A model generated the notes under the pieces. That model did not search any database and was not told where the DNA came from. It worked only from the letters and a program-made list of their open reading frames with translations. Made by a program: the position numbers and the translations under genes. DNA of 64,000 nucleotides, taken from positions 4,741,258 to 4,805,257 of the forward strand of contig JAHRHZ010000002.1 in assembly GCA_024137785.1 (NCBI GenBank), read 5' to 3'. This stretch comes from Ginglymostoma cirratum. Taxonomy: Eukaryota. Of this stretch, positions 17,654-45,662 are shown piece by piece; position 1 is the stretch's first letter, and each line of letters opens with the position of its first letter.

Positions 17654-18598
17654 GACATCACAGCACAAAAAACAATATTGTCTATAATTTATTGGCTGGA
17701 TCTACAGTACAGATATTCACAGCATATCCTTCCCCCAACTGTTAACTCTTTAAATCAAATAATTCGTAGTGATAGAACTTTCAATTTGTTATTTCAAGCA
17801 CTGTTTGTTAATCTTTTCATTCTGAAAAGTAACAGTTCCCAACTCCTCTGTGGTATCTGTCTCCTTAAACACCCAAATAATTCCAAGCAGAGAATACTCA
17901 TTATTTGAAATGTTAATTCCTTCAGAGCTTCCTTTACCCAAATGATAACTCCCTGCAGAATATTCAGTGCATGGGAGCACAGCACATTCATCGCTTGTGC
18001 TACACGTATCAGTAATACTCATCAAAACTGTCTTTGTCCTTTACATGGAGCATCAGAGTCATGCCCCAATATTGACGTGGTACCTCCTGTGCTGCACAAT
18101 TTCCAATCTAGATCTTTTTGTGATGATCTTTCCTCTCACTGTTTGAAAACCTTAAAAAATGTTTTCCAATTCAGTATTTGTGAATAGCTTCTCTTGAAAT
18201 ACAATTGTAAATGTGATCAAACCTTCCTTTCCCTTGCGAACACAGCTCGCCATCCACATCAATTTCAATTTCTATGTCCCTTGCAATTATTGTCAGTCCC
18301 TCCAAATTCTGGGGAGGGGTAGGGCACAAATTAGTCTTGTGTTAGTCAGTTAGAAGAGGGACCTTTCTCAAAGTAGATTGCGCTGTTTCAATAAACTCTG
18401 TATTGACCCTTGTTCCTCATTGGTGGTAAAGGACTTTGTAACGTTGCTATCTAGATGACGTTGCACTGTGTTTACATCAGAAACATTGCTTGCAGGATTT
18501 AATGTGTCTGTTTTTGATGGACTCTCTTTTCCATTTGTGGCATCATTCCCTTGCTCCAGGTCATGTGGACCATTTGACTCTCTTTGTAAGGGTTGTGT

Positions 18599-18699
18599 TT
18601 AGAGCTCGGGCTCAGATATGCTCATCAGCTTCAGTTCCACATTATTCTCCATGACTTCCTGCTGAAGGACAGTGGGCCTGGTCTCCAGAATGGGATGAG
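18599..18699 (-). CDS. MHC class I-like gene A, terminal cytoplasmic exon (to TAA; frame stays open to TGA at 18368-18370)
   Basis: The acceptor ttttcattaatttcag| is conserved in both paralogs. The phase-1 frame gives (A)HPILETRPTVLQQEVMENNVELKLMSISEPEL*; the other two frames close earlier. Splicing to the TM exon is inferred. Confidence 0.7.
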
Positions 18700-18864
18700 C
18701 TGAAATTAATGAAAATATTAAACATATCAATTGAATTATAATTGAGAAAAGTATAATTGTGGCCATCAACTGGTCAGTAACAGTAATATGGAACTATAAC
18801 TTTTTAATGTCCTTTTCCAGGATTTATGTAGAACAGCTGCTGTGGATTTCCTTTTTAATATGTC

Positions 18865-19670
18865 CACTGATTTTCGTCATTTGTAGAAATGATTTGGATG
18901 TGAGTATAGGAGGTATGGTTAGTAAGTTTGCAGATAACACTAAAATTAAGTGGTTTAGTTGACGGTGAAGGTTATGTCAGAGTACAATGGGACCTTGATC
19001 GGATGGGACAAGGGGCCGAGGAGTAGCAGATGGAGTTTAATTTAGATAAATGTGGTGAGGCAAACCAGAGTAAGACTTGTACAGTAAATGGTAGGGCTGT
19101 GGGGAATGTTGCAGCACAAAAAGACCCTGGGAGGGCAGGTGCATACTTCCTTGAAATGATGTAGCTAAACTTGACAGGGTGCAGAAAAGATTTCTTAGGA
19201 TGTTGCCAGGATTGGAGGATTTGATCTATCGGGAGAGGCTGAGGCTTTTTTCCCTCGAGCGTTGGAGGCTGAAGGGTGACCTTACAGAGGTTTATAAAAT
19301 CATGAAGGGGAATCGATAGGGTGAATAGCCAAGGTCTTTTTCCTAGGCTGGAGGAGTCCAAAACTAGACGGCATAGATTTAAGGTGAGAGGGGAAGGATT
19401 TAAATAGGACCTAAGGGGCAATGATCTCATGCAGAGGCTGGTGCGTGTATGGAATGAGCTGCCAAAGGAAGTGGTGGAGGCTGGTACAATATAATTACAA
19501 TAATTACAATATTTAAAAGGCATCTGGATAGGTATATGAAAAGGAAGGGTTTAGAGGGATATGGGCCAAATACTGGCAAATGGGACTGGATCAGATTGGG
19601 ATGTTTGGTTGGTGCAGACATGTTGGACCGAAGGGTCTGATTCCACGCTGCATGACTCTATGATTCTATT
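18865..19670 (+). mobile_element. CR1 LINE 3' fragment
   Basis: NDLDV...SKFADNTKI followed by the CR1 C-terminal and 3' UTR pattern. Confidence 0.85.
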
Positions 19671-20029
19671 GACGAGGACGTGGAGCTTTGATTACAGACC
19701 ATTCTGCACTACATGTTACCCCTGAGACAGGGGAGTTGGGTCAGACAGAAAGTGGATAAAACAAAATAAAGCAGCAAGACAGGGAGACTCAGTCTGTGTG
19801 TTGAGTATGTCGAAAGAAAAGTCAAAAGTGAAGTCACAGTGAAGCAAGATTGTTTGGTGATGATTTTGCTCATTTGTTTGTCAAATTTGTGTCATTCATT
19901 AGTAAGCATAACGTTTCATTAGTATCGGCAGCATTCACTTGCGGTAATAAAGCTCACAGGGAGTAGTAGACTTTATTAATTTCAAATGAATGAAAAAAAA
20001 TAAATTAATTAACACACAAGAAAGACAGC

Positions 20030-20540
20030 AGTTCAGTTTTGGTCACTTTGATATAGGAAAGATGTTATTAAACTGGAAAGAGCGCAGAAGAAATTTACAA
20101 GGACATTGCCAGGACTAAAGGGACTGAGTTATAGGGAGAGGTTGGACAAGCTAGGACCTTTTTTCTTTAGAGTGTAGGACACTGAGGGGGGAATCTTATA
20201 GAAGTGTATAAGATCATGAGAGGTACTGATAGTGTTGAATGTACTCAGTCTTCTTCCCAGGGATGAGGAATCGAGGACTAGAGGGCATCAGTTTGAGGTA
20301 AGAATACATGGGAACTTGAGGGACAATCTTTTTTACACAGAAGGTGGTACACATATGGAATGAGATGCCAATGGAAGTGGTTGAGACGGGTATATTAACA
20401 ACATTTAAAAGGAATTTGGACGAATACATGGATAGGAAAGGTTTAGAAGGATATGGCTCAAGTGCAGGGAAATGGGGTTTGCGTGGACGGACATTTTTGG
20501 TTCGCATGGACCAGTTTGGGCTGTAGGACCCTATGACTCT
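20030..20540 (+). mobile_element. CR1 LINE 3' fragment
   Basis: Same C-terminal and 3' UTR pattern. Confidence 0.8.
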
Positions 20541-22505
20541 GTGGCAGGCAATGTGACTGCAGAATTGCTCCTGGCAGTGTGATCCAGCACAACATGTCTC
20601 AGTAAGTGTCTGTGCCATGAACAGCTTCAGCTCAGAATCAGTGAGCTGGAGACTGAGCTGCTAACTCAGCGACACAACAGGGAGGGAGATGGACACTTCA
20701 TTCCAGGATGCAGTCACAGCCTTTTGGATAGGTTCTTCAATTTTGTCAGTGGTCGGGGCTAGGAGTACGTGACTGCGAGTGAGATGGGTAGAGGACCCTG
20801 AAGAGGAGCCTCAGCCTTCGTAACTGTCCAACAGGATCAGCGTTTTTACAAACTGTATGGATGGAAGCATGGGTTAGAGGGTCGATAAGCAAACTGACTA
20901 GGATGCCACTGAGGTGTGGAGAGTTAATGGGAATACAGTTGTGGTAGGGAACAGTATTTTCAGTGAGATAGACACAGTTTTCTGCAGTGAAAGTGAGAGT
21001 CCAGAGCATTATATTGCCTGCAGATACCTAGTGTCCGGAACAACAGCATAGGGTTGAAGAGGAACGTGGAGTGGGAGGGGAATGATCACAGTCATGCTCC
21101 ACATTGGCACCAACAGCACAGACAGGAGAGAGCTGTTTTTGAGGGACAATGAGCATTTTGTGGGAGCTGCATATTTGGTGCACCCTCACCTGAACTGCTG
21201 GGTCCATGTTCTGGTGAGTGCTATAAGCGAGAGACCCTGCTGTTTAGTTTAAGGCTAAGGGAGAAAGTTTAGAAAGATGTGAAAAATTAAGGCTGTGTTT
21301 GCTGACACTGTACATCTGTATTAATTCGGAAACACGCTTACACACAATTCCAGACCTGTTATATCATCATGTCAAGATTACATGTGATGTCATACACAAA
21401 GCCTGCAATGAGCATGTGCAGAGAAGAAGTTCGTGCGACTTTGAAACAGGGATCAGCAAGGAGGGAGGACACAGGACCAGGATGTGGTGGAAGTGAGGAC
21501 GTGATGGAGGTGAACGAGGACATGATGGGGAGTGGGAGGGAAATGAGGACATGAGGTGCTGGTTAATGAGCTAGTGGTGGTGTGGTTTGCAAGGAAGTCT
21601 TGGGGGGCATTGGGGAAGAGGAAGGAGTGAGTAAGCAGGTTGCAGGAAGCCTCCAGCCCTCCTCCTCCTATTTCTCCTCCTTCTATCCCTCCATTCATCT
21701 TTCCTTTACCTCACTCCTTCCTCCTCTCCCCATTTCCTGAGCATTGCGCTGCCTTCTGTCCCCCTCTACTGAGCATACCCCAAGCTTCCTTGTAATGTTA
21801 CCACCATCTCTCGGGTCCCGCTACCACTCCAACCAGGTCCTGTGACCACCCACCCCCACCCCCCCACTCCCCCATCTACCAGCTTCCTGGACCAATTCCT
21901 CCCTCAGGAAGGTCCCAGCACCACCCCTGTCTTGAAGCCTCTCCCCACTCCCCTCTCTTGGGTATTGGGCATTGTTTTCCCCCTCCATCCCCTAAAACTG
22001 TTTACATAGACACATGTGAATTAAAAGTAGCACCTAGCCTGCATGCATTGGTGTCAGCAAAAACAATCTTACATTAAATGGAGAATATAAAGCAGAGACC
22101 AAGACACCAATAATGGAAATTGTGATCAGGAAGGGTCAGAGTATACAAATTAGACGTCCACCAGCAGATGAAACTAGAAGTTACAAGAATATTAAAAAGA
22201 ACTAAAGGCTCCCTATCTGAATTCATGAAGTGTTTGTAACAGATTCAATGAATTGACAGCACAAATAGACACGATCTGACAGCTATTACAGAGACATGGT
22301 TGCAAGACGAAGAAGACCGGGACCTGTATATTCGAATGTGTAAAATGTACAATGGAGTGTCTAACATTAGAAGTGATTCTGCAATTGGACAGCATTTGTT
22401 AGATCAGAGATAATAGGAACTGCAGATGCTGGAGAATCGAGATAACAAGGTGTAGAGCTGGATGAACATAGCAGGCCAAGCAGCATCATAGGAGCAGGAA
22501 AGCTT

Positions 22506-22533
22506 GACGTTTCGGGCCGAGACCCTTCATCAG
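22506..22533 (-). ncRNA. Minimal hammerhead ribozyme motif in a solo pLTR (element ~22405-22555)
   Basis: Reverse complement is CTGATGA-agggtctcggccc-GAAAC-GTC. Confidence 0.7.
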
Positions 22534-23054
22534 AAATGGGGTTGGGGAAGAGGGTCCTATAATGCTGATTGTGCATGGAACTATGCTGACAACTAATTTA
22601 GGATTGTCAGTCAGACTTGCACACCTTCCTAGTTTGAAATTGAAATGAAGTCTGTCAGTTAACACTCAATCATCATTAATTGCTGCATTCTCCAAGCAAT
22701 GCCCCTACCAATCAGAGACACTTGCCAATGATCAGCACTGTTCTCTCATACACAATAAACATTTTCAGTAGTACTCAACTCTGTATTACCAAATGTCTAT
22801 TTGTATAGCTGAGGCAGTCACAATTGCAATGTCAACACAGCTCAACTTACATGTAAGTTAAGACAAAGTAAGCTTTCTATTGAAATTATTCAAAACATAA
22901 GGTTGTGCCAGGTTTCGTTTTCAAATGTATTGATAATGAGACAGAGTCCCATGACTGAATGGACATTTATGCAACATAAGATTGAACATTTGGTAATAGG
23001 CTTACCATTTCTCAAAGGGTAAGAAGATGGGAAGCGTTGAACTTCATCGGGACT

Positions 23055-23530
23055 TTAGAACATAGAACATAGAGCAATACAGCGCAGAACAGGCCCTTCG
23101 GCCCTTGATGTTGCGCCGACCTGTGAACTAATCTAAGCCCATCCCCCTACACTATCCCATCATCATCCATATGCTTATCCAAGGACTGTTTAAATGCCCC
23201 TAATGTGGCTGAGTTAACTACATTGGCAGGCAGGGCATTCCACGCCCTTACCACTCTCTGAGTAAAGAACCTGCCTCTGACATCTGTCTTAAATCTATCA
23301 CCCCTCAATTTGCAGCTATGCCCCCTCGTACTAGCCGACGTCATCATCCTGGGAAAAAGACTCTCACTGTCCACCCTATCTAATCCTCTGATCATTTTGT
23401 AGGTCTCTATTCAATCCCCTCTTAGCCTTCTTCTCTCCAATGAGAACAGACCCAAGTCCCTCAGTCTTTCCTCATAAGACCTTCGCTCCAGACCAGGCAA
23501 CATCCTGGTAAATCTCCTCTGCACCTTTTC
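23055..23530 (-). mobile_element. Young CR1 LINE 3' fragment with (tagaaca)n tail
   Basis: [39 protein letters not shown] / IRGLDRVDSESLFP...TRGH. Confidence 0.9.
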
Positions 23531-23827
23531 CTTGTTGTCCTTTTTCATGACTAACTGAAAGTTGACATAGCAAGTAATTAAAGCAAATGACACATTGTTC
23601 TTCAGTATAAGAGGATTTCAGTATAGGAGTAAAGATGCTTGACTACAATTCTATTGAGCCTTGGTGAGATGTCACTGGATTATCGTGTGCATTTTAGTTC
23701 TCTGTCCCAATGGAAAAATATACTTGTTGTAGATGGAAATCCAACAAAACTTTGCCAGATTAATACCTGAAATGGAATGATTGCTCCAGGGAGTAAAGTT
23801 AAGGAGACTGGGCCTTCATTCTCTTGA

Positions 23828-23995
23828 TAAAAACCGAAAGAACTGCGGATGCTGTAAATCAGGAACAGAAACAAAGTTGCTGGAAAAACGAGCAGGTTCT
23901 GGGGAAGGATCACCAGACCCAAAACGTTAACTCTGATATTTTCTTCACAGATGCTGCTAGACCTGCTGAGCTTTTCCAGCAACTTTGTTTTTGTT
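23828..23995. mobile_element. Miniature inverted pLTR element of a second Penelope subfamily
   Basis: Minus arm 23828-23897 and plus arm 23898-23995. Diverged 15-bp TSD at 23813-23827 and 23996-24010; empty site in the paralog near 47630-47645. The same subfamily occurs at 1-400 and 40480-40710. Confidence 0.7.
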
Positions 23996-26900
23996 CCTTT
24001 ATCCTCTTCAGTTTGGAAGAATCTGAGATGACCTCATTCAAACATAACACATTCTTCCAGGGCTCAACAGGTGGTAAATGGAGGGTAGCTGGGAGTTAGA
24101 AATTAAGACTGTGGGACTCGGTCTCAGAATAAGGGGCAACTCATCGAAGGCTGAGATGGGAAGGAATTATTTCACTCAGAGCCTGGTGATTCACTGCAAT
24201 TCACTATCCAAGAAGCTTGGGGAAAGCTCAGTTGTTGAGTATCTTAAGACTGAGATCAATAATTTTTGGCATATTAAAGAACACCAAGGGATATGGGGAC
24301 AGTGTAGGAAAATGGCACGGATAACGGCCAATGAATGATGGAGTGAGCCTGAAGGGCTGCCTCCCCTCATATTGTGTCTATTTTTCATGTTCTTAATCAT
24401 TGTACAGACTCAGTCTCTAGATGACCAATGCTCACCTTCCTTAATTTTTTCCTTTTTAAATATTTGTAAATGTCCTTACTATTTCTTTATTTCTAACTAG
24501 CATACTCTATTTTCCGTCCTCATTAAGATGTTAATTATTCTTTGCAGTACTTTGAAATCTATCCAATCTTCTGACTCACATTTCTGAATCTGGGCACATT
24601 TTGTTTCAATTTTAGACTATACTTAACTTCCTTCTGTTGGCTACAATGGCAGATTCCTCCTTTAGAATCTTACCTTCAGTGAGGAAAATATCGTAGTATT
24701 CTGAAATATCTCCATAAATGGTTGACACTGCATCTTCATTGACCTATCCCTAAACCTAATTTCTCTGTCTTCATGCCCCCAGTTCTATCCTTATTTAAGT
24801 TTAAAACACTACTCTTAGATCCACACTTCTCCTCAAATTGAATGGGATATATGATTATATTAGGACAACTGCTCCCTCAAAGCAACTCTATTCTGTGATT
24901 ATTAATTAATCCTGTCTCATTGCACATTAGCAGATTTAACCAAACTGCTCCCTGGTATTCTTTGTGACACACACCTCCATGAGACTGTCCCAAAAAACGT
25001 TTCATGAACTCCTCATTGATGCAATTTACCAATCTCAGTTACCTAACGTACTTATAGAACAAAACCATCTATGTTTACTGCTGTACCTTTCTCACAAGTC
25101 CAAAATATTTCTTCCTGTGTACCTCACCCTACAACTTGGTTGGTCTTGGGGAAAATCTAAACAAAACCTAGCTCTAAGCTGTCAATCATTCACTGCTAAA
25201 TTCTCCACTGCAGCATGTCCGTCAGAGTTTACTTGTCAACCAATGAGCACTCTTCTCTCATAAATGTTGTTTTCCCTTTACGTTGATATTCAGATGAATT
25301 GGCCTGATGAGTGCAAATGAAAATCTTCTCAAAATGTGTCGTTTTCTTCAGCAGTACTGAAGTTCTGAACTGAGATCACAACAAAGACCACACATTGGGA
25401 TATCAAAAACATAGTTCAACTTACAGTTAAGTTATGAACAGGTAAGTTTTAAATGTTTTTCTCAGGCTGTATTAAACCCAATTGTGTGCCAGTTTTCATT
25501 TCCAAATGTATTGCTAATGTGAAGGTGAGACCCAGTCCCAAGGCTGATGGATCTTTATGGTAGATCAGATGCAAGAAACACACTGTATTTCTGATCTTCC
25601 ACCAGTGTGGATAACCTTACATTTCTCCACGTTGCCTTCCACATGTGAATGTTTTTGTCTACTTACTTAGCCTTTGCAAATCACCTTGAAGCATCTTGCT
25701 CCCTTCTTATTGCGCTGTTTGCAAAGTTGGAAATATTAAATTTAATCTCACATCCTAATAGTAATATATATAGATTGTGCATAGCTAGGTCCCCAGCACA
25801 GATGCCTGCAGTCTCCCACTAATCACAGCCTACTAACCTGAATATGACCCTATTTACCCCTATTATTATGTATTTTCCGTCTGTAAACCAGTTCTCAACC
25901 CTTTCCAACATATTCCCCCAAATTCCATTAATAAAGCCAAATACTGAAAAGGTGGATGAATTGAGCAGATACTTTGTTTCTGTCTTTACTGTAGGGGATA
26001 AACAAAATCACCAAAATAATTGTGATTCAGGAGGTGAAAGGAGGAACTTAAAACAACGATGCTGAGCAAGCTATCAGAACAGACACCGACAAGCTCCCAG
26101 GTCACACAGTCAGAGATGCACAGCACAGAAACAGACCTTTCCGTCCAACTTGCCCATGCCAACCAGATATCCTAAATTAATCTGTCTCATTTGCTAGCAT
26201 TGGCCCATATCCCTGTAAACCCTTCCTATTCATATACCCATCAGATGCCTTTTAAATGTTGTAACTGTACCAGCCTCCATGACTTCCTCTGCTAGATCAT
26301 TCCATACATGCACCACCCTCTGCTTGAAAAAGTTGCCCCTTAGGTCCCTTTTAAATTTTTCTCTTCTCACCTTAAACCCATGCCCTCTAGTTTTGAAGTC
26401 CCCTAACCTCCTCATCCTAGGCTCTTAAAAGAAGTCATGTGAGATAAAATTGCATTAGTTTTAATTTCCCAAATTTCCTGAATTCTGTAAAGGTCTCATC
26501 AGATTAGAAGATAGTCCATATGACTCCTCCCTTCAAGAAGTGAGGGAGACAGAAGGAAGGAAACTACAGATCAGTAAGCCTAAGTCTGGCACAGGGAAAG
26601 TGCATTTTGAAAATCTCAGTGCAACCAGGCTGAGTAAATGTGCTTTTGTGAAAAGACAATCATGTTTGACTAGTATATTTCTTTGAATTCTTTAAGTGAC
26701 AAGCAACTGGTTGAAGGGAAAGTTGTGGATGTTGTGTCCTCAGGTTCCCAGAAGGCATTTCACAAGACACCACATCACAGGTTACTATGCTCATGGTGTA
26801 GATGGTAACATGTTGGTTAGCATAGACAGAGGATTGACTACCTAAGAGGAAAATTAGATAATGCAAAAATATGTCATTTTCAGATTAGCAATAGGTAACA

Positions 26901-28729
26901 AACTCAGTGCCACAGTGATTAGTGCTGGGGCCTCAATTATTTACAATATATATCAATGATTTTGTTTAAGGAACTAAATATACAGTTCCTAAATTTACCC
27001 ATAATTCAAAGAAAGGCAGAAAAATTAGTAGTAAACAGACGGATACAAATAGTAATGGGCAAACAAATGACAGCTGGTTTATAATATGGGAAAATATGAC
27101 TTGTCCACTTTGTTAGGAAAAATAGGAAACAGCATTTTATTTAAACAGAGAGAGATGGTGGAACTCTGAAGTGCAGAGAGTTCTGTTACATGACTCACAG
27201 AAAGTTAGGGTTGGCAAGTGCAGCAAGTGATTAGGAAACCGAATTAAATGTTGCCGTTTATTCCAAGAATTGAAACATAAATGAATGTTGTGCTAGAGTC
27301 TGAAAGGCATTGGTTCTACAGCATCTGCAGTACCATGCACAGGTACGATGCCCTCACGTAAGAAAAGATGTAGATGTGTTCAAAGCAGATCCGAGAAAGG
27401 GTTGGACAGGTTGAGCCTGTATTCATTATAGTTTAAAAGAGGGAGAGATGTTCTTATTGGAACACACAAGGTCCTGAGGGGTTTGATAATGTGGACACTG
27501 AAAGAATGTTTCCTCTTGCGGGAGAGACTAGAATCATTGGACACGGTTTAAAAATGAGGGATCTTCCATTTCAATGGACTGAATTTTTTTCTCTTAGAGG
27601 GTTGTGAGTCTTTAGAACTCTCTTCCCCAGAAAGCAATGAATGCAGGGTCACTGAAAACGTTTAAGGTTGAGTTGATCTATTTTTGACCAACAAGGGAGT
27701 CAAAAGGTTATTGGGGGTAGGATTGGAATTAAGGACACAGTCAGATTATCCCTGTGGGCACAGTGACCCACCCCTGTTCCTGAGTCTTTTGTTTATAAAA
27801 TGCAGGTAAGAATAATGCGCTATTCAGATTTACTAAAGGCCTTCAATAATTTATCACATGGAAGTCTCATGACTAAGGCCAGTGCACATGAAGTGAAAGG
27901 ACAAGTAGCAGAGTTATTGCATACGGTTCTGGCTGCCGACTAGCAAAAGGATGCGGACGCTTTGGAGAGGGTACATAAATGGTTTACCGGCACGTTGCCT
28001 GGTTTCGACAGTTTGAATTGTGGTGAGGTATTGGACAAACTTGGTTTGTTTTCACTTGAACGGAGACTGAGGCGGTGGGGGGTGGTGACTTGATAAATGT
28101 TTATTAAATTATGACAGGCATGGATAGAATGAATACTCAGAGTCTTTTTCCCACTGTAGAAATGTCAAATACTAGGGAACATAAGTTTAAAGTAAAATGG
28201 GGAAAGTTTTTTAGGAGATGTGAGAGGCAAGGATTATTTTTAAACAGAAGCTGGTAAATATCTGGAATGCGCTGCCAGAGGCAGTGGTAGAAGCAGGTAC
28301 AATAGCAATTAAAAGGCATCTTGACAGATATATGAATAGGTAAAGAATAGAGGTGTGCAGATCACACAAAGGTAAAAGGCTTTTAATTGAGACGTGTCAG
28401 CGCAGGCTTTGTGGGCCAAGGCTCTAGAAGGTAAAGAAACCAGAACTGCACACAATACTCCAGGACTGAGGCTCTCCAAATGCAGTAAAACTTCTTTACT
28501 CCTATGGTCAAATCCTCTTGCAATAAAGGCCAACATACCATTCACCTTTGGTTAGATCACACATTCTACATCGTCATATTAAACATGGTCAATTCACACA
28601 CTATCCCCTCACTTCTACATTGCCCTCTCTCTCACTCTCCCTTCTGATTTTCCTGTACTCCCAGCACTGGAGATACCCTCACACTCACTGTTTCCCCATG
28701 TTCTACATTCCCCTCTGTCTGATTCTTAC

Positions 28730-28837
28730 CTCTCCATGGCCTTTTCCAGATGATTATTCCAAACGTAACAGCCAGTCCAGTGAGTAATCCAATTATTACT
28801 GAAAACTGGAACCACGTTCTGTTTTTTTCTGGGATTT
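28730..28837 (-). CDS. MHC class I-like gene A, exon 5 (connecting peptide and transmembrane)
   Basis: Not in the ORF track. 108-nt phase-1/phase-1 exon (tttcag| ... |gtaaga) encoding (E)IPEKNRTWFQFSVIIGLLTGLAVTFGIIIWKRPWR, a hydrophobic helix with a basic stop-transfer segment. A paralogous exon lies at 54124-54243. Confidence 0.88.
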
Positions 28838-29980: not shown

Positions 29981-30259
29981 CCAACTGACAGAACTTGGCT
30001 TCTGACAGGCTGCTGTGTTCAATTTGACAGGAATATTGATCCTCATCCCCAGCACTGATTTCAATCTCTTTCTGGATCTGATGGGTCCCATCATGGTTCG
30101 GTCGAATCCCCGAGGATTGTGTCTCAGACACGACCTCTCCATTCCTTAGCCAGCTCACCTCGATGTCTACAGGATAAAATCCAGTGACCAGGCAGGAGAG
30201 AGTGAGCGGCTTGTCTTGACGATTGGGTTCAATTCTGGAGATGAACACTTCAGGCTGAA
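29981..30259 (-). CDS. MHC class I-like gene A, exon 4 (alpha3 C1-set Ig domain)
   Basis: 279-nt exon with cacag| acceptor and |gtaagg donor. LSCLVTGFYPVDIEVSW...RPNHDGTHQ...YSCQIEHSSL is a canonical class I alpha3. It is separated from alpha2 by a 117-nt intron. Confidence 0.96.
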
Positions 30260-30376
30260 CTGTGATGGGAAAGGGTGAAAACACAAACAATAGACAGACA
30301 TTGAATGGAATAGGAGAACGGTTTCATAGATCAGTGACGTTAGATCAGAACATGGGGCCAAAACTAAAACTCATAC

Positions 30377-30652
30377 CTCTCCTTCCGAAATACTGTCTTC
30401 CAAAGTGTAAGCGTGATTTTAAACGCTCAACAAGTTCCTCTTCCAAGTGCCATTTCCAGTGCTTGTTCCATTCGTTATCAGAATCCCATTCCTCCTTGAT
30501 CTTCACTGCAAAGTGATTAGATGCGACCCATCTCATTCTGTCTGATTCTAAACTAATAAAGTCCTTTCCATCAAATCCAACATTCATCGATCTCTTAATG
30601 GAGCCATCAGCAGTGATCTCAACAGTCCTTATGAATTGCAAAATATGCACTC
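30377..30652 (-). CDS. MHC class I-like gene A, exon 3 (alpha2 domain, no cysteines)
   Basis: 276-nt exon with ggcag| acceptor and |gtatga donor. GVHILQFIRTVEITADGSIKRSMNVGFDGKDFISL...W...KEEWD...HLEEELVERLKSRLHFG shows the HxLQ, FDGKDF and W147 motifs of class I alpha2. Confidence 0.93.
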
Positions 30653-33106: not shown

Positions 33107-33367
33107 CAGATGTTTGGTTTGTACTTTTCATTACCGTCCTCAGATTCTCCCTTGCCATGGCAGAATGTTTGTTCCCTTGCTTTGTGAGCATTTTCCAGTA
33201 ATTAGCATCATACGAGTCTGTCATCCACTGCTGTAAGGAGACTGTCTGACAGCTGTCACTGTCGTAATAGGTCACAGGAACTCCATTAATCATTGCTACA
33301 CCGAAATACTCAGGTAGGTCAGTTGTGCCAGAGACAGCTATAAAAGCCGCAGTAAAGATTTTGTTCT
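33107..33367 (-). CDS. MHC class I-like gene A, exon 2 (alpha1 domain)
   Basis: 261-nt exon with ctacag| acceptor and |gtaaga donor. Translation (E)NKIFTAAFIAVSGTTDLPEYFGVAMINGVPVTYYDSDS...QQWM...ANYW...LRTVMKSTNQTSG has the class I alpha1 pattern (PEY, YDS, WM, YW, N86-x-T glycan site). Confidence 0.92.
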
Positions 33368-33972: not shown

Positions 33973-35239
33973 ACATTCAAAAAAAAAGTCCTTGGTAGTG
34001 CAGAACAGTCTTCATATAGTAGAAGCAGCCAAGGAGGCATCAATGCAAATGGAACATTGAATTCTACTTTTATCTGGAGACAGCCAGGAAAATCATGGAG
34101 AGGGAAAAAATGGTTAGCAATCCACTATCCCTGTTCCAATCAGAAACTGAGAATAAACTACTGTTTATATTCTGGAAAAAAAGTACACTCGATTATCAGG
34201 GCTCCATTTTACTGCGAACATGAAAGTTGATCATTTCTTGAATTCAAATTGCAGAACCAGAGGTTCAATGATTGGCTCGTCTTGGAAAAAGATCAACTAA
34301 ACTAAGCAATGACAGTCTGAATCGTTACTGTCACCAGTAACCGGGACATTGAAAATCACACAGGGTAATGCTTTAGGAACCAAGGACAGCATTTAATTAT
34401 TGTAATTATTAGTGTGATGGCACCCCTACCCCTTCACTGTCAGCCAATCACATGGTGGGAAATGGGGAAGATGGGCATGTCACAAGAGATTGAGAATGGA
34501 GGCAATCTTTCTCTCTTGCCTTTTGGAGCCCATAGCAATTCTGTGCTGCAAATTACTAAACTATTAATCCAGAGACTTAGGTAATGTCCTGGGGCCCCAT
34601 GTATAAATCCTTTTATGGTACATGGTGGAATTTTAATTCAATACAATCTAAAATTTAAAAAGTCTGATGATGACCATGAAACCATTACTCATGGTCAGAA
34701 AAACGCATCTGGTTCACTAATTTCCTTTAGGGAAGGAAACTACCATCCTTACCTGGGCTGGCCTATATGTGACTCCAGACCCACAGCAATATGGCTGACA
34801 AGTAAAAGCCCTCTGAGCAATTAGGGGTGGGCAATAAATGCTAGCCTATCCAGCAATGCTCACATCCCATGAATGAATACTTTTTTTGAAAGTAAAGTCT
34901 CATTTGTGTTTTTTCCTGCCAGGTATACACAAGAGAAGGGGTTATAAAACCAACTGCAATGTGTGTGTATGTGGTAGTCTGCTCTTTAATGAAACTGGGC
35001 AACAGTGTACTGGGGAGGCAATAGCCGAAGAAAACTACTTGGCTATATGGCTACAACTATAACTACCATGGTGACAAGAATACTTACAGGTTACTCATTA
35101 AACTCCTTTCGATACACAAAACTCATATGTCACTAGTTAAAAATTCAAAAACCCAAAATATAAAAAAATTGTACATTTCTATACAATAATCACCAGTTCA
35201 CATCACACCCACAAAGTCAAAGATATTCAAAGACATTTT

Positions 35240-35333
35240 TTCTGATGAAGGGTTTAGGCCCAAAACGTCAAGTTTTCCTGCTCCTATGATGCTGCTTGAC
35301 CGGCTGTGTTCATCCAGCCCCATGCTTGTTATC
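35240..35333 (+). mobile_element. Solo Penelope pLTR (core with GAAA changed to AAAA)
   Basis: ctgatgaagggtttaggcccaaaacgtc...cttgttatc. Confidence 0.78.
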
Positions 35334-36047
35334 AAAGATATTCCTGTTGATCTACACATTGAAAATGTTTTCAACTTATTCTAGAATATCAATGATGAAC
35401 TGGTAAACTTTGGCCAGAGCCAGAATGCAAAGTAGCAATTGGCAAATGCCAAAAAGGGACCAACTACATGTTGCAAAAGGTCATTATTTGGGAATGACCT
35501 GACAATATGTGGATAGTCATTCATTTTGGCCACACAGGGACTAGCTTTGTGTATCATGACAAATCCAAAAGCATTACGCTATGATATCATGTGCATGCTA
35601 CCTCAGGCACACATGGGGTTCAAAAGTGTCCCTGCCTCTGAACCAACAGACCTGGGTTCAATCCCATCTGCTCCAGAGATGTGTCATAACATTTTTGAAC
35701 AGGTTGATTAAAGAATATCAAATACATAATTTCCTCTAATTTTCTTAACCACCTGCAAGGACCTCCAAGGCCCATGCATGTTAGTGATTTCTGGAACCAG
35801 AGATCAATGCCACGATTAGTGTGCCAACACTGACCTTGGAACATCAGTGCCTCTGTGTGTGTCGCACAGTTATGCAGCTTACTGATTGAATGCCCAAGAA
35901 CTGCTGCACTGCCCAGCAATGCAATCAGGGAAGTCAGTGCATCTTGAATATATACAAGGTACACCAAAAAGACCTCATTAGCAGAAGGAGCCTCTAAATC
36001 TACACAATGATCCATCCCATCCTCAGACAATAGTAGAGGACCTATTA

Positions 36048-37110
36048 TAGAGTCATACAGTGCAGAAACAGACCCTTTGGTCCAACTAGTCCATGGCAAC
36101 CATAATCCCAAACTAAACTAGTCCCACCTGCCTGCGCGTGGCCCATTTCCCTCCAAACCTTTCCTATTCATGTACTTATCTCAATACCTTTAAACACTGT
36201 AACTGTACTCGCATCCACCACTTCCCTTGGAAGTTCATTCCATACACGAACCACTCTCTGTATAAAAATGTTGCCCCTCATGTCTTTTAAAAATCTTTCT
36301 CCCCTCACCTTAAAAATGCCCCCAGTCTTGAAATCCTCCAAGCTAGGGAAAAGACACCAACCATTAACCTTATCTGTACCCCTTATGATTTCATGAACCT
36401 CAAAAAGGTCACCTCTCACCTTCCTATGCTCCAGTGAAAAAGTCCCAGCCTGTCCAGTGTATCCTTATAACTCAAACCTTCCATTCCCAGCAACATCATG
36501 GTAAATCTCTTCTGAACTGTCTCCAATTTAATAATAACCTTCCTATAGCATGGTGACCAGAATTTGACACAGTATTCCAGAAGAGGCTCACCAACATATT
36601 GTACAGCCTTAACATGACACCCCACCTCCATATTCAAAGGTCTGAGCAATGAAGGCAAGCGTGCTAAACACCTTCTTAACCACCCTGTCTACATGTGACG
36701 CAAACTTCAAAGAATTATATCCCTGAACTACTGGATCTGTCTGTTCAACAACACCACTCAAGGCCCTGCTATTAATTGTTTCAGACCTGCCCTTGTTTAT
36801 TTTACCAAAATGCAACACCTCATATTTATCCAAATTGAACTCCATCTGCCAACTCTTCAGACCATTGACGCAATTGATCAAGACCTCTTTCTAATCTTAG
36901 ACAGCCTTCTTCGCTGTCCACTATGCTACCAATTTTGGTGTCTTCAACAAACTTACTAACCATGCTTTCTATTTTCTCTTGTAAATCATTTATATAAGTG
37001 ACAAACAAAAGTGGATCCTGTGGAACACTGCTGGTCACAGACCTCCAGTCTGAAAAACAACCCCTCACCACTAATGTTGTCTCCTGCCGTTAAGCCAGTT
37101 TTGCATCCAA
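36048..37110 (-). mobile_element. CR1 LINE RT fragment
   Basis: SDWRSVTSSVPQDPLLFVTYINDL...SKFVEDTKIG, WQMEFN, LEYCVKFWSP and RGDL. Confidence 0.9.
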
Positions 37111-39182
37111 TTCATTGCGCACAAGGAAGATTACAGCCTTACGATGGATTACGTTCTAAATTTCCCAATGTTTGATAACTGAGAAACTCAACAAGCTCAA
37201 TCATTGCTGACTCGATGCACGTTATTTCCAATTTTGGAGTACTTGGCCGGTACACAAAATGTCCATGGGCTATGTGCAAGTGGGCAATGTGACGTCATTA
37301 TTGGCTACCAGGTCTCTCCAATCCAAACTGCATCTTGTTTTTGTTTTAAATTCACTTGTGGGATGTGGGCATCGCTGGCTAGGCCAGCATTTTATTGCCC
37401 ATCCCTAGCTGCACTTGAGAAGGAGGTGGTGAGCTGGCTTTTGTACTCTACAGTCCATGTGCTGTAGGTAGACCCGGAGTCCTATTAGGAAGAGTTCCAG
37501 GAGTTTAGCCTAATGATATATTTCCAAGTCAGGATGGTGATTAGATGGGGATCTTGTAGGTGGTGGTGTTCCTATGTATCTGTTTCCCTTGTCCTTCGAG
37601 ATGGAAGTGGTCATGGGTTTGGAAGGTGATGCCTAAGGATCATTGGCAAATTTATGCAATGCATCTTGAGGATGGTACACACTGCTACTACTGAGTATCA
37701 GTGGTGGATGAAATGTATATGGTGCTAATTAAGGGGGCTGTTTTCTCCTGGATAGTGTAAAGTTTCTTGAGTGTTGTTGGAGCTGCACCCATCCAGGTAA
37801 GTGGGGAGTATTCCATGACTCTCCTAACTTGTGCCTTGCAGATGAAGCTTTGGGGAGTCAGGGGGCAAGTTACTTGTCATGGTATTCCTAGCCTCTGACC
37901 TGCTGTTGTAGTCACCTGTATTTATATACAGAGTCCACTTCAGTTTCTGATCAATGGTAACTCCCAAGATGTTGATAGTGGGGCATTTAGTGATGGTAAT
38001 GAATGTCTGATTAGAATAAATGATTAGATTGTCTGTCATTGGAGTTGGTCATTGCCTGGCATTTGTGTGGTGCAAATGTTACTTGCCATTTGTCAGCCCA
38101 AACCTTGATATTGACCAGATCGCGTGGCATTTGAACTTGGACTGCTTCAGCATCTCTGCAGTCACAAATGGCATTGAACTTTGGGTATGTTCACTAATGA
38201 TGCACACTTCTGACCTTATGATGGAGGGAAGTTAATTGATGAAACAGCTGAAGACGGTTGGGCCTAGGACACTACCCTGGTGACCTCCTGCAGAGATGTC
38301 CTGGAGCTGAGATGACTGACCTCCAACAACTACAACCAGCTACCTACATACCAGGTGTGACTCCAAACAGAGGCGAATTTGCTCCCCTGATACGCATTGA
38401 TTGCAGTCATCTGCTCCTTTGCCTTTAGACACCTCTTCATGTCCCTTCACCCTTCTCATTTTCTCTTTATCTCTCCATCCACCTCCACACCACCCTCCCC
38501 CTACTTCCAAAACCATTAACTTTTTGACCCACGATTCTGTAACTCCCACCCTATGCCCATTTCCCGCAGCACTCTGACAATCCCCTTTACTCCAAAGTGG
38601 CTGGTGTAAAGGGTAAAAGGCTGCTGCTTCCTTCAGGAGGATGCATTGGTAGTGAGTTTAACCTGAAGGTCACCACGACTCAGGCAAAGGGTGAGATTGA
38701 GAAGATAGATCTGTAGCGGTAACCACAGCGGATGCATGAATGAACCCAAACCATCCAGCCATTGAGCTAACCAACACCCCACCCCGCCCTGCCCAGTTCA
38801 GCATAACCCTGTATTTAATACCTACCATTTTTGTTCCCCTGTTTATTACCCACCATTAACACATTAACTTTGCTTTTCAGTCAGATACATCACAATTCTG
38901 GCATGTGAAACCTCTCCTAGCAACATGCCTATTTACATGTAATCCTTCCACCCTCCTCCTCCCCCACCCGTGATCCTTCTCCCCCCACCCCGCAGTGATC
39001 CTTCTACCCTTGTCCAGACTAGCCTCTGCCCCTCGGTCATCCTCCAGGGCCCCATACAACTCAGATTAAATTAGTTTTGCCGGTGCTTCTTTCATCTGGG
39101 CACCAGGATATTGTATCCATGGGAAAAGGATGGAGAAGGACACACCCGCACATATGAAAAAACAACAGGGAAAGAAAATTGA

Positions 39183-39510
39183 GATAACAAGGTGTTAATA
39201 AATAACAAGCTGGAGGAACACAGCAGGCCAAGCAGCATCAGAGGAGTAGGAAGGCTGACGTTTCGGGCCTAAACCCTTCGTCAGAAATGGCCACTGAGGT
39301 TTTTCCGGAAGGAGGAGGGTAACTTCTTCAGGGTAGGCATCCTTAGAAGAGGCTTCGCAGTGGGCTTAAAATTGTTTCAGAGATAGTAGGAACTGCAGAT
39401 GCTGGAGAATCTGAGATAACAAGGTGTGGAGCTGGATGAACACAGCAGGCCAAGCAGCATCACAGGAGCAGGAAGGCTGAAGTTTCGGGTCTAGACCCTT
39501 CTTCAGAAAT
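39183..39510 (-). mobile_element. Non-autonomous tandem pLTR/hammerhead element (retrozyme-like) in intron 1 of gene A
   Basis: Two direct copies of the Penelope pLTR with cores at 39479-39506 and 39257-39284 (222-nt period) and no ORF. 15-bp TSD gggaaagaaaattga at 39168-39182 and 39511-39525. Confidence 0.8.
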
Positions 39511-39706
39511 GGGAAAGAAAATTGACAGACACATACACACATCTAAATAGCTCGGTACAGACACAAAGACAGAGTCTCTACAAGTTAATGCAGTATTTTG
39601 ACACACGTTTCCTACAGACACCGACGATCCCATTCCTTATAAAATCCCAGGGATTTCCCAAAGTGGAGAATGAAAGTGAGAACGAAAAGCTGAATTCTGT
39701 ACTCAC

Positions 39707-39779
39707 CCGCAGATACCCAGGAAAAACACAGGGAGATGGAAAAAAGGATCAGCAACATTCTGGGAATCCACTTTTCCAT
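39707..39779 (-). CDS. MHC class I-like gene A, exon 1 (signal peptide MEKWIPRMLLILFSISLCFSWVSA)
   Basis: ATG in ccccATGG context at 39779. The 24-aa leader is hydrophobic and ends VSA, followed by a phase-1 donor G|gtgagt at 39706. This matches the phase-1 acceptor of the alpha1 exon. Confidence 0.85.
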
Positions 39780-39824
39780 GGGGGACAGGGAATGAAAGAT
39801 CCTGAGGAGGGGGAACAACTAGCG

Positions 39825-40030
39825 TTTATAGACTGGAAGAGAAAATTTTAAAAAACTCAGCAAGTTTATCGAGCCTCCATGTTATTGTTGACATCGAAAC
39901 GTACCAATTTCCGGATTTCAAGCTGCAAAACGAGAGGGTGGCAGATTGGTTGTCACCATAAAAGTGCCCAATGAAAGGGATAAGCAGGTCTGTCACCAGT
40001 TACCAGGAGGATTAACCACAGGGAGATCAT
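39825..40030 (-). promoter_or_regulatory. Gene A proximal promoter: X1/X2-like box, Y box (ATTGG), CCAAT box, TATA box
   Basis: Gene-strand order is CCTGGTAACTGGTG (40007-39994, RFX X1-like), overlapping TGACAGA (X2-like), ATTGG (39972-39968), CCAATC (39949-39944) and TATAAA (39830-39825), about 45 nt upstream of the ATG. This is the same order as in mammalian class I promoters. Confidence 0.6.
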
Positions 40031-41559
40031 GTAAAATATAAATAGTGTAACCTTCCGGTTAGGGAAGGGGTGAAGGATGTTGATCGGGAGAGAAAACTGC
40101 AGATTTCTGTCTGCGGATAAACTTTCTCAATGAAATTCCGGGACCTTAAAATCGGGTGGCCTTTCCTATTGAAGGTATCAGGTTGCCGGTCAGCACCTTA
40201 TTGAAAAACACAAATTACTGGAATAACGTTGAAATAAAGTGTTCCTGCTGAATTCAGATCGCCCCAATTTACTGACTGCGTTTAGCAGGTGTATGCCCAT
40301 CTACAAAAATCCGTGAAGACCAGTATGAATCCAGAAGGTGATTCCGATCTGGTCAGCTCTGGGTTTGTACTGGAGCGAACCTCAAACTGAATTATTCCGT
40401 TGGTCTGAAATCTGGCACCAGGTCGTACAGAAAATCCAGAGCGTTATGTTTCTGTTCTCATTTGTAGTTTATTTAAAGACAGCCCCTGGACCCCCACCCT
40501 CACCCACACCCCCCGACCCCACCCACCCTCGCAGCTCCATCTATCCGCTCACTCCTTCCTGCACCCACCCCCCGTCACCATCATAACTACTACCTTTTAC
40601 TCGCTACGACCAGTTCTGAAGAGGAGTCAGATTGGAATCGAAACGTTAACTGTTTTCTCTCCACAGACCTGCTGAGTTTCTTTACCATTTTCTGTTCTTG
40701 TTTCGCTTTAAATATTTCTGCCCTGAATTTACATGCATAGACTGATGGAGGTTTGTTCGTTATAGAGAAGTTGGATCTCGGGGTCAGAAATCCGCAATGC
40801 CACATGCCTGGTTTGGAGCCCCATGATTAGGGAAAGAGACAATGTCGCATATATCCTGGAGCTCCATTTTGATGGAGGCGGCCACTCTTTTCTCGGAAGG
40901 CAGTGCCTTCATGTCCGGAGAGATTAATAGAATCCCTACAGTATAGAAGCAGGCTGTTCAGCCCATCTAGTCTACACCCACCAAAGAACACCAAAGAATC
41001 GGTCAGAAGCCTTTGGATCTCTGGAGAAGATGGTGCTACAATTGTGTCTGCAATAATAAAAATAACACTTAAAACGTGAAAGTCAATTTACTTTCCCCTG
41101 ACCAAATTGTTGCAACTTTTTTCTTTAACCTGCCAAAAACTGCCAAAGTGAATAAGGTCAAGAGAGAGAGCCCAGAGGAAATAAAGAAGGCACAAAGGGA
41201 CACGTCCAGTAAAAAAGAGTTTCTGCCTGGGTACTAGGGACTGGCAGGGTGTGCCTGGGTTTAACCCACTTCAGAAAGGTTCTGCAAAAGTGCAGCAAGC
41301 TACACAATGTTTAGTGGCTGTGTAAGGAGCAGTGTGCTCCAAATAGGTTTGGAAAAGCCAGATGAAACTTGTAGAAATTAAAAGGGCGGAAGTCACACTG
41401 AGACATGGAGGAAGGATCGATAGAAACTAAAGACTAAAGGGAGTAAGTCTGAAATTGAACTGGCAGTCCCCTTCAGAGGTGAGTTACTTGGGAGTCTGAA
41501 GGATTTCCACACTGATAGGCAGTGGGATGCCTCACCCAGTTAAAAATTCAGAACCAGTC

Positions 41560-41790
41560 AGAGCTTAGAATGATTAAAGTTTGGAAAGAGGCCATTTGGC
41601 CCATCAAGTCAGCATTAACCCTCTGAAGAGCACCTGACCTCGAACCACTCCCTGCAACCCTTATTTCCCACGGGTAATCCACCTAGCCTGAATATCCCTG
41701 GACACAACAGGTCAATTTACCTTGGCCCATCCACCTAGTCTGCACATCTTTGGACTGAGGGAGCCACTGTTTCAATTTGTGTGGCAGGCA
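41560..41790 (-). mobile_element. HE1-like SINE 3' fragment
   Basis: Reverse complement of the core (tgcacatctttggactg). Confidence 0.65.
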
Positions 41791-42300
41791 AGATATTTTC
41801 CTGGCTTGACAGCAGCATCCTGTTTGTGGAGAATTCCATTTGTGTTGTAACTGTGAAGGAATACTGTGAGATTCTGGTTTCACCTGCTCCGAATTCTTGA
41901 AAATTTTTCTCTTTCCAGGGTAGCCTGAGATATATGGGACACCTTTCAGGGTAAAACCTGTTCGCAATAGTCCCTTTCATGAGTTTGTACAAAACACAGC
42001 AAGTGTTGATTTGATCAGGGTATCTATGATTGTGCTGGATAGCTTTGATGTGCCCTCTCTCAGCATCAAGCTCATACAGTGAGCAGATGGCTAGACCTCT
42101 ATTCACAGGTTGCAGACAAGATTGATCTTGTAATGTGTGGAGCTGTAGGAATCCCAACATGTAATCGATAGGAGTAAAGAATCCATTATCAAATTTCTCA
42201 ACAAGCACTTTGAAGAAAGGGACCTTGTTTGATTGATGCATTTAATAGTAAATCCGAGTGCAGGATGGGGTTTGGTAAATTGTTTCATGAAAGCATACAG
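41790..42300 (-). mobile_element. Old Penelope (Poseidon-like) RT C-terminal fragment; paralog at ~14460-14760
   Basis: HPALGFTIK / NKVPFFKVLVEK / WDSYSSTHYKINL / VNRGLAICS / YPDQI / YLRLPWK across frameshifts is the PLE RT thumb and linker pattern. Confidence 0.7.
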
Positions 42301-44887
42301 GAATGCAAATGAATACAGCTCCTGTCTATAACTAGATGTGATGTTTCACTTTCCTGTACGAATCATATGTTTCATCATTCCACATCAGATACCTTCAACA
42401 TGTCCAAAAAATTTCATAACAATCAAAGTCCTTTTTAAAATCATGGGAAAAGTGTTTACTGGCTGAGGAGGGGGGGGAAGGAATGAAAAGTAAGTTGTTG
42501 GTGTTGATGAGATTGCTTCATGATGTATAGTCTGAATTATCATCTGATAGTTTATATATTCAAACAAAATTAAAATCCAGGGTTTGCCATACATAATGAT
42601 GACTAGAAAAAGTATTCTGTTTGGTATCTGTGTCAGGCAACATGATCAAACATTGTACATTTCCAGTCACACTCTTGACCATGTCGGGATTGGGAGGGTC
42701 AATATTAGAGTAATATTTGGTACTGAGCATGGAGAAAGTGTCAGAGTAAAAGCGGTTTTAGTCACTTAGTAATAAAATAGTTATATATATGTTACTCAGT
42801 AAGGTGAAAAATCCATTCTCTAGTAAATTACTCTCGACACAGATTTGTACAGGTATTTAATTGTTGTTAAAAATGACACCGAGGTGGATTAAATAATATA
42901 TTTTATTGACATGCGGGTGATCGTTGATTAAAGTTAATACAATTTCAAAGTAAATCACTGAATAAAGTTCCGTTGACTAATGGAATAGAAACAATTGTTC
43001 CAAGGTCATAAAAAATAAATTCAATTCAAACAAGGTTGGTCAGCAGAAATTCAAGAACTTTTTTTCGTTGAATTAAACTCCCAAATGGTTGCAATAAAAA
43101 TTTAGTGTAATTTTATACAACTTATTTTATTCAATAATTTTAAATTTTAGCAAGAGTAACATTGCCAGGAATCATATTTGTTGAACATAAATAACATTAT
43201 TTGTAATCTTTTTTAAGTATTTGATGAAAACATCTAAATCTGTAAAATTGTAACATACAAATAAAAGATTAATCTGGTGTAAAAGTTAACATTATGCATT
43301 ATGATACGAGAAACCCGTTGCAGTTTCTTTTGGTTTCTAATGTTAGTTGCTGATTTATTTAGATATTGGTATCCAATGACCGTAAGCAGTCAATGTCTCC
43401 AACTTTCAAATAAAACAGAGTTAAAAATAGAAAGCATTGCAAATACATGACTTGCCAGTCAGCATTTGAAAAGAGAACATATAAATGAATCTTTCAGATT
43501 GAAATCCCCCACAGTCAAAAATGAAAAGTTTTCTGCTTTTGATTCTGATTGGCTTGCCTATTTAAATGGTTTTATTCTGGATTTACAATTACCCTTTCTT
43601 TACAGATTCTGAGCAGTTACTTCCCTCTCATACAGAGCTTACAAAGGCAATTGGATAAACAGTTGAAATGGATCATTTGCAGGGACTGGAACAAAATAAA
43701 TAACTCCGCAAAGAGCCAGCACGATTGAATAGGCTGAACAGCTTCCTCTTTTGTTATATCAGTATATAATGATATAGGTTTGAGGAATATATCTTTTCCC
43801 CCTAAACCTCTCAGATGATGTAACTGTCTGATTCTCTCTACGTATTCAATACCTGTTTCGAATTTAAACAGTCCATGATCTTACTGTAATCATTTGCTGA
43901 TCTAGAGTCACTCCTTAATAGAGAGAGAAATTGCTGGATGAAAATAACAAATCAGAAAGTTTAATTATTAACTTGAAAAGCTAATAGGAAATCGAGGATT
44001 GACAGGCAAATATAACAAATCTGTGTCTTTCATATACTTACTGGGGAAATGTTCTTTCTCCACAGATGTTGCCAAACCTGGCGAGTATTTCCAGAATTTT
44101 CTATTTTTATGGCAAAAGGCCAAAGTTTTGATGCTGGTATGAACAGGAATATTCCAGTTTCTGTGTTATTAATTGAAATTTCTCAAGTTCATTTAAGAAA
44201 ATGGTTTCCAGTTGAAGTGTTTATACTTTAAACTCAAATTGCTTGAAACTTCTGTTGTATAGTTCACTGGTTGCAGTTAATTTCTCTGTCCGTTCAGCCC
44301 TCTACTCTGGTGACATACAGCACTATGATGTGAGATGTTCCAGTTTGTACAATTACACAGGATATCACAGCACAAAAAAAATTATGTACAATTCATTGGA
44401 TGGATCTGCAGTCCAGATTTTCTCAGCAATATCCTTTCCCCGATCTTTAATTCTTTCTGTCAATGATTTGGACTGTCAAAACTTCCAATTGGTGTTTAAA
44501 TAACCGTCTGTTAATCTTTTCAGACTGAAATGTAACAGTTCCCAACTTCTGTGGCATCTGTCATCCAGGTTGTCCCTAAACACCCAATAATTCCAGGCAC
44601 AGAATTCTCATTATTTGGAAGCGTTAATTCCTTCAGAGCTTCCATCACCTGACTAATAACTCCCTGCAGAATATCCAGTGCGTGGGAGCACATCAGTAAT
44701 ACTCATCAAAACTGTTTTTGTCCTTTACATACAGCATCAGAGTCACTTCCCCAATTTGATGTGGTACCTCCCATGCTGCACACTTTCCAATCTAGATGTT
44801 ATTCTGATGATCTTTCCTCTCATTGTTTCAAATCCTTGAAACAATATGCTTTCCAATTCAATATTGGTGAATAGCTTCGCTTGAAAA

Positions 44888-45200
44888 AGGGTGGCACGGT
44901 GGCTCAGTGGTTAGCATTGCTGCCTCACAGCGCCAGGGACCTGGGTTTGATTCCACCCTCAGGTGACTATTTGTGTGGAGTTGCACCTTTTCCCTGTGTT
45001 TGTGCGGGTTTCCTCCCACAGTCCAAAGATGTGCAGTTTAGATAGATTGTCCATGCCAAATTGCCAATAGTGTCAGGCTGGGTGGATTAGCCATGAGAAA
45101 TGCAGAGTCACAGGGATAGGGTGGGGTGTGGATCCAGATGGGATGCTCTTCCGAGGGATGGTATGGGCTGAATGATCTGATTCCATAGTGTAGGGGCTCT
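44888..45200 (+). mobile_element. HE1-like tRNA-derived SINE
   Basis: A box TGGCTCAGTGG, B box GGTTTGATTCC and core cctcccacagtccaaagatgtgca. Absent from the paralogous site near 18195. Confidence 0.85.
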
Positions 45201-45555
45201 ATGAAATGCAATCAGACCTTCATTTCCCTTGTGAAGTCAGCTTGCCACCCACATCAATTTCAATTTTTATGTCCTGGCAATTATTTTCAGTTCCTCCAAA
45301 CTCTGGAGGGCACTGACTTGTATTGGGTTATAATAGTGACCTTTCTCAGTTTGGATTACATTGTCTCAATAATCTCTGCATTGATTCTTGTTTCTCATTG
45401 GTGGTTAATAATTCCGAAACATTGCTATCTAGATTTACATTGGAAACATTGCCTGCAGGATTTAATTTGTCTGCTTCTGATGGACTCTCTTCTTCACCTG
45501 TGGTTTTATTTTCTTGCTCCAGGTCATGTGGACCATTTGACTCTCTCTGTAAGGG

Positions 45556-45662
45556 TTATGTTTTGAGCTCGGGCTCAGATATGCCCATCAGCTTCAGTTT
45601 CGCATTATTGTCCGCGACTTCCTGCTGATGGAGCGTGAGCCTGGTGTCCAGAAAGGGTTTAG
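45556..45662 (-). CDS. MHC class I-like gene B, terminal cytoplasmic exon (to TAA; frame stays open to TGA at 45346-45348)
   Basis: Same acceptor as gene A. Translation (A)KPFLDTRLTLHQQEVADNNAKLKLMGISEPELKT* is homologous to 18599-18699. Confidence 0.7.

Follow-up and report, generated by a model that had tools for sequence, protein, structure and literature searches.

Separate last-exon stop codons shorten the long cytoplasmic tail of two class Ib (probably UEA) paralogs in Ginglymostoma cirratum

Results

The stretch analyzed here, which we call the window, comprises 64,000 nucleotides of Ginglymostoma cirratum DNA (assembly GCA_024137785.1, contig JAHRHZ010000002.1, positions 4,741,258 to 4,805,257) and carries on its minus strand two expressed paralogous genes, A and B, with the architecture of a class I heavy chain of the major histocompatibility complex (MHC): leader, alpha1, alpha2, C1-set alpha3, transmembrane (TM) segment and cytoplasmic tail each occupy their own exon, and the tail is encoded by a single last exon. 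Each gene has its own TAA in that exon, ahead of a reading frame that is still open. We consider it probable that both stops persisted because the tail is weakly constrained, and that the sequence behind them is now plain 3' untranslated region (UTR). The parts of the two genes, in window coordinates, and the last exon of a third paralog, C, are as follows.

39710..39758, minus strand: gene A leader exon (MLLILFSISLCFSWVSA), matching the leaders of orthologs
33107..33367, minus strand: gene A alpha1 exon; 81 of 88 residues identical to whale-shark protein P0003; joined to alpha2 in record 5 of the X1 contigs
30377..30652, minus strand: gene A alpha2 exon, aligned without either canonical cysteine
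29981..30259, minus strand: gene A alpha3 exon; joint 29981-28828 in X6
28730..28837, minus strand: gene A TM exon, phase-1 donor AGA G/gtaag; record 10 of X6 joins 28730 to 18699
18602..18699, minus strand: gene A last exon, translated part, 33 residues including the split Ala, from spliced contigs
18599..18601, minus strand: gene A derived stop TAA at exon codon 34; CAA in the close ortholog
18368..18598, minus strand: gene A former coding tail, 76 codons plus the ancestral TGA, from the frame and the contigs; now probably the start of a long 3' UTR
Window-equivalent ~66436-66696, just beyond the window: gene B alpha1
58932..59207, minus strand: gene B alpha2 exon
58535..58813, minus strand: gene B alpha3 exon
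54124..54243, minus strand: gene B TM exon, phase-1 donor; reached from the last exon by B-type contigs
45559..45662, minus strand: gene B last exon, translated part, 35 residues including the split Ala
45556..45558, minus strand: gene B derived stop TAA at codon 36; CAA in the close ortholog
45346..45555, minus strand: gene B former coding tail, 69 codons plus the ancestral TGA, ending RQCNPN like the whale-shark B protein
G000:C2:4830829-4830965, outside the window: gene C last exon (L003)

The last exons read GAG CTC TAA ACA CAA CCC in gene A (TAA at 18599-18601) and GAG CTC AAA ACA TAA CCC in gene B (TAA at 45556-45558), exactly where the original prediction had placed the stops. As it also stated, both frames stay open beyond the stops, for 76 and 69 codons, to a homologous TGA (18368-18370 and 45346-45348), and the two tails differ by a frame-preserving 15-nt indel. 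The deletion is shared with whale-shark B, whose tail still codes, and is therefore uninformative on present-day use. This frame is the one transcribed: both TM exons have phase-1 ends (28730 and 54124), and in spliced contigs they are connected to the acceptor at 18699, a junction that rules out the other reading frames of the last exon. Each stop had been set against a sense codon in the other copy; gene B does have AAA at the position of A's stop, but the ancestral codon of A there is CAA (Gln), not AAA.

Both stops recur in spliced contigs from other studies (A in three, B in two), always behind the same acceptor, which rules out an assembly error. The RNA label of runs X1, X6, X9 and X20 is a guess and X2 is unlabelled, and all of them give spliced contigs; contigs drop rare variants, so that the stops are shown to be common rather than fixed. 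In X2 and X9, from two studies, one contig has 0 differences to A over 18554-18701, and a second shows all 17 of the 17 A/B differences, including B's TAA. These A-type and B-type contigs, and one contig of X20, leave the last exon at the same place into TM sequence. In X6, from a third study, record 10 joins 28730 directly to 18699, and the 15 differences from A in this run are the 15 A/B substitutions at 18472-18549, with none at A's stop; record 10, A-like upstream and B-like downstream, is probably an assembly chimera formed via a shared 34-nt stretch. Editing of CAA to UAA in the RNA is likewise ruled out, since the T is genomic here and the DNA-type and RNA-type contigs of a second organism (organism B) alike carry C. 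Downstream of A's tail, contigs continue unspliced as far as 17585 at least, with 16075-17435 covered as well. In X9, what looks like a poly(A) end at 18534 precedes an A-rich run and is probably due to internal priming.

Two further observations concern this region. At 18531, inside the dead frame, the assembly encodes Gly (GGA) where X1, X2, X6, X22 and organism B have Glu (GAA). At the far 3' ends of the two genes, 15790-16050 and 44105-44365 form a gap-free block of 261 nt that is 89.7% identical, above its surroundings, and may be a conserved UTR element or a conversion tract.

Comparison with other sharks shows that the ancestral last exon had 105-110 codons, which have been cut to 33 residues in A and 35 in B; an unusually long ancestral tail, as originally proposed, is thus borne out. 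The relatives are database gene models, with contig support confined to the whale-shark-type codon at A's stop. Full-length tails occur in three of them: whale-shark B (second half of the fused model P0056), which has Gln at B's stop and ends RQCNPN, the end of the post-stop B frame in the window; one epaulette-shark A copy (second half of P0042), whose tail ends RKNLF; and a C-type paralog of the horn shark (P0065), with the whole 110 residues ending QSLLRHCDPH. Whale-shark A (P0003) has Gln at A's stop, followed by 54 further residues. Contigs of organism B, whose differences reproduce P0003, have CAA at A's stop, and a B-type contig is open at both positions. Relative to close orthologs, both stops are therefore CAA-to-TAA (C-to-T) changes in Gln codons that arose separately, after that split. 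Together with the tree, the CAA at both positions supports the independent and recent truncation, after the split from the whale-shark lineage, that the original prediction had offered as one of its alternatives.

The position of the stop is labile throughout this long-tail subfamily, to judge from the 15 tails aligned. Three reach the homologous end and two are open to at least residue 105, their ends hidden by fused gene models; the other 10 end early, at 13, 45 (three species), 50, 50, 57, 59, 75, 88 and 97, in about eight separate events. The lost stretch of the tail contains 18-19% order-promoting residues and no Tyr, and neither the A nor the B extension has a Pfam match. No further long-tail exon was found in 16 more loci scanned, other paralogs being covered in part only. 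Upstream of gene A's last exon, at 18790-18860 on the minus strand, lies the dead remnant of a small extra tail exon, which reads GNPQQLFYINPGKGH before a stop and has a weak donor; C-type genes still use their copy, and the remnant is skipped in spliced contigs and missing from the A and B ortholog proteins. A look-alike of the Tyr-containing tail exon of short-tail paralogs, an intronic AG followed by 33 nt with Tyr at the short-tail position (~26810-26842 in A, ~48420-48453 in B), was rejected: 26810-26842 matches none of those paralogs' Tyr exons at the DNA level, and the B copy has stops.

To evaluate the constraint on the tail quantitatively, we compared substitutions before and after the stops. 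Between A and its ortholog, the 54 post-stop codons show 6 nonsynonymous changes in 125.7 sites and 2 synonymous changes in 36.3 sites (ratio ~0.9), and the 32 pre-stop codons show one change of each kind. Polarized with B, 8 of the post-stop changes fall to this lineage and 3 to that of organism B, with 2 unclear (p=0.23). Between B and whale-shark B, 4 of 34 residues differ before the stop (11.8%) and 8 of 69 after it (11.6%), so the kept part is no better conserved than the lost one. These counts suggest that the post-stop tail diverges at a near-neutral rate. In neutral simulations with 1.5-6% change per site, the post-stop frame stayed open in 31-75% of cases, and a whole tail was hit in 34-80%. 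The openness of both frames thus needs only the youth of the stops.

Over 18550-18636, an 87-nt stretch, A differs from B at 4 positions, two of which are the stops, against ~20% in the rest of the exon. Within bamboo and epaulette sharks, too, the A and B tails are almost identical to each other, and this likeness suggests recurrent gene conversion of the last exon. A single origin of the stop, spread by gene conversion, was rejected as unneeded, the stops lying at different homologous codons.

The long tail of a third paralog also stops at this spot, which the original prediction did not include. Paralog C lies outside the window, some 44 kb past the last exon of B. Its codon 32, Gln in horn shark and smooth-hound, is TAG, so that all three long-tail paralogs end at homologous codons, 32 (C), 34 (A) and 36 (B). 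A second, older end of C at residue 45 is common to bamboo sharks. Behind a frameshift, the ancestral frame of C is open for ~60 codons and ends SHCDPY, comparable to RHCDPH of the horn shark. With stops weighted by mutational access, the chance that those of A and B fall within two codons of each other is 7.5-10.8%, a mildly unusual spacing, and it was helped by the clustering of Gln codons at 34, 36 and 39, each one transition from a stop. The near-coincidence noted originally is real, but its specialness was overstated, since many sharks have truncated tails of this kind and the spot holds a cluster of Gln codons.

Discussion

Our results indicate that these tails were most likely trimmed by the ordinary decay of a sequence under weak constraint, and not as a readthrough or splicing device. 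The CAA-to-TAA nonsense changes, which arose independently in A and B, would lie in a relaxed, disordered part of the last exon. The mRNAs would have escaped nonsense-mediated decay because the stop lies in the last exon, from which the contigs run on unspliced into the long 3' UTR among the joints listed. The proteins would keep a tail of normal class I length, ~38-39 residues from the membrane, losing a Ser/Glu/Asn-rich, probably disordered stretch that ends in a Q-S/R-L-L block; this block may resemble a dileucine sorting signal. The frame would still be open only because some 2-4% change per site has accumulated. The truncations themselves are well supported, and known processes account for most of what is seen.

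Several observations weigh against neutral decay. All three of C, A and B fall within five codons, which has a probability of 1.0-3.0% under the mutation-weighted null, a figure computed post hoc and without a date for C's stop. In other sharks, codons 30-38 contain none of the ~8 events. No second stop follows downstream in A or B, so that multiple hits moving the stop upstream do not account for the clustering. Both the length of the tail and its terminal block (horn shark QSLLRHCDPH, whale-shark B QRLLRQCNPN, 6 of 12 identical) persist across galeomorph sharks, which argues for some function. Finally, the comparisons of substitutions rest on few changes, and none reaches significance.

This raises a question: Could the three paralogs have been trimmed under selection? 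All three are cut just before a conserved P-x-Q-R-x-S block (codons 37-42), and its loss, together with that of the terminal dileucine-like block, might lengthen the stay of the protein at the cell surface, as with the short tail of HLA-G. We regard this as unlikely, while recognizing what speaks for it: besides the clustered stops, there is no open contig in other studies, codons 37-42 are kept in 9 of 10 early-ending relatives, and the terminal Leu-Leu is kept in none of the four aligned A-type relatives (three end early and one has LF). The probability was, however, computed once the pattern had been seen, and the whale-shark model, which leaves the exon at codon 20, gives no date for C's stop. 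In addition, an ancestor shared with bamboo sharks had already lost the tail of C beyond 45, C of the zebra shark ends at 13, the kept part of B drifts too (4/34), and the roles of the motifs are putative, suggested by resemblance. A triple, HLA-G-like convergence within one cluster, in which this lineage independently cut three class Ib paralogs as selection favored the loss of an ancient tail for sorting or signalling, therefore seems doubtful to us. If it were true, whale, epaulette and horn sharks would provide natural full-length controls, and the three stops would be a compact case of parallel evolution in immune-receptor trafficking.

HLA-G is the precedent for such a change: a premature stop in exon 6 shortens its tail, turns coding exons into UTR, removes an endocytosis motif and lengthens surface life, according to the excerpted text of PMC3021195. 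Like HLA-G, A and B are non-classical class I genes whose tail was cut by a stop that made former coding sequence into 3' UTR. Unlike HLA-G, they keep ~38-39 residues from the membrane, the part lost is an unusually long Tyr-free extension, and truncation occurred in parallel in paralogs. The tail of HLA-G is very short, at ~6 residues. Among fish, the teleost H-lineage also comprises non-classical class I genes with a large, distinctive cytoplasmic tail, whose Tyr motif is under purifying selection while the ectodomain decays, as excerpts of PMC6769792 describe. In A and B, by contrast, the ectodomain is kept, and it is the tail that drifts, lacks Tyr and has been lost repeatedly.

A still weaker case can be made that the extension is still produced, whether by stop readthrough, by an alternative acceptor just beyond the stops or by open alleles, as the original prediction had also suggested; we judge this highly improbable. 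In its favor, neither frame meets a further stop before the ancestral TGA, A has an in-frame phase-1 AG ending at 18580, AGs lie within 45541-45547 in B, and low-level forms could be hidden, rare variants being dropped by contigs. Against this, all four runs over 18350-18720 list no alternative joint or second acceptor, their sole splice-type loose end being at the main acceptor, and no open contig occurs among those of other studies, with the same caveat on rare variants. The in-frame AG is a GAG behind a tract of 47% pyrimidines, as weak as originally described, and no contig in those runs uses it. Readthrough typically occurs in contexts such as UGA-CUAG and UAG-CAR-YYA. Here TAA is followed by ACA in A and by CCC in B, and the sequence behind the stops folds no better than its shuffles (z 0.04 and 0.49), which leaves no readthrough hairpin. 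Programmed readthrough combines a leaky context or a structure with purifying selection on the extension; neither stop has the former, and the post-stop nonsynonymous changes accumulated at a neutral rate. If the neutral account of the stops holds, it carries a caution: an open frame behind a young stop is no evidence of readthrough.

That A and B are instead early pseudogenes, their stops one sign of whole-gene decay, we consider very unlikely indeed: their alpha1-alpha2 branches are longer here than in the whale shark (A 0.037 vs 0.0096; B 0.044 vs 0.023), and other paralogs of the cluster have stops within alpha2 (G000:C2:5100331 and 5140548, probable pseudogenes), but every exon checked in A and B is open with GT-AG ends, spliced contigs come from several studies, and only 2 of 92 residues separate alpha2 of A from that of its ortholog.

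The family to which A and B belong can be placed with some confidence. Whale-shark P0003, the ortholog of A, scores above the Pfam cut-offs for MHC_I and C1-set, alpha2 of A shares 98% identity with a class I-like protein of the whale shark, and sharks are the source of all 40 alpha2 matches listed. A is not classical class Ia (shark UAA), most peptide-terminus anchors and the alpha2 disulphide being lost. Aligned with solved class I chains, chicken BF2 among them, A has both alpha2 cysteines replaced (V, L); at the anchor positions, in standard numbering, T143 is I, K146 is E, Y159 is H, Y171 is R and R84 is S, Y59 and W147 are kept, and Y7 lies outside the alignment. The shark UEA genes are said to lack most invariant peptide-binding residues, a loss that is seen in A. 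Of 17 alpha2 matches in G000, eight (52-100% identity) all lie on C2 at 4.77-6.31 Mb, and the remaining nine are at 25-37%; a BET-domain gene (1 of 4 matches) lies at C2:4627965, ~130 kb from gene A. The excerpted text of PMC10751288 describes UEA as a family of several copies within a single cluster whose borders are brd2 and beta-2-microglobulin. The multicopy cluster fits that description, as would the BET-domain gene if it is brd2. A and B, which have also lost most classical anchors, are class Ib genes and probably UEA, placed by described features of the family (PMC10751288, PMC12562908) and not by labelled UEA sequences, the database proteins bearing generic names. In a tree of 30 alpha1-alpha2 sequences (P0025 left out), A, B and C fall into three old clades inside one group (99/99), each with orthologs from other sharks, and the host lies near whale and zebra sharks. 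Relatives of these three old long-tail clades occur in sharks only, among the matches listed. No account of the tails was found in the literature searched; the primary UEA/UDA papers and their supplements may hold one. With its ancient Tyr-free tail of 110 residues, intact in some sharks and cut at various points in others, the subfamily offers a natural series for mapping tail function.

A few minor features remain. Both canonical alpha2 cysteines are missing from A (30377-30652), B (58932-59207), C and the horn-shark protein, which have a single Cys elsewhere, at varying positions. In the database isoforms P0004 and P0065 the TM exon is skipped and alpha3 is joined to the long tail, which would yield a soluble form. 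Finally, broken retroelement copies occupy 3997-5689 and 49442-51507, one of them within the last intron of gene B; they include putative reverse-transcriptase-like and GIY-YIG-like stretches.

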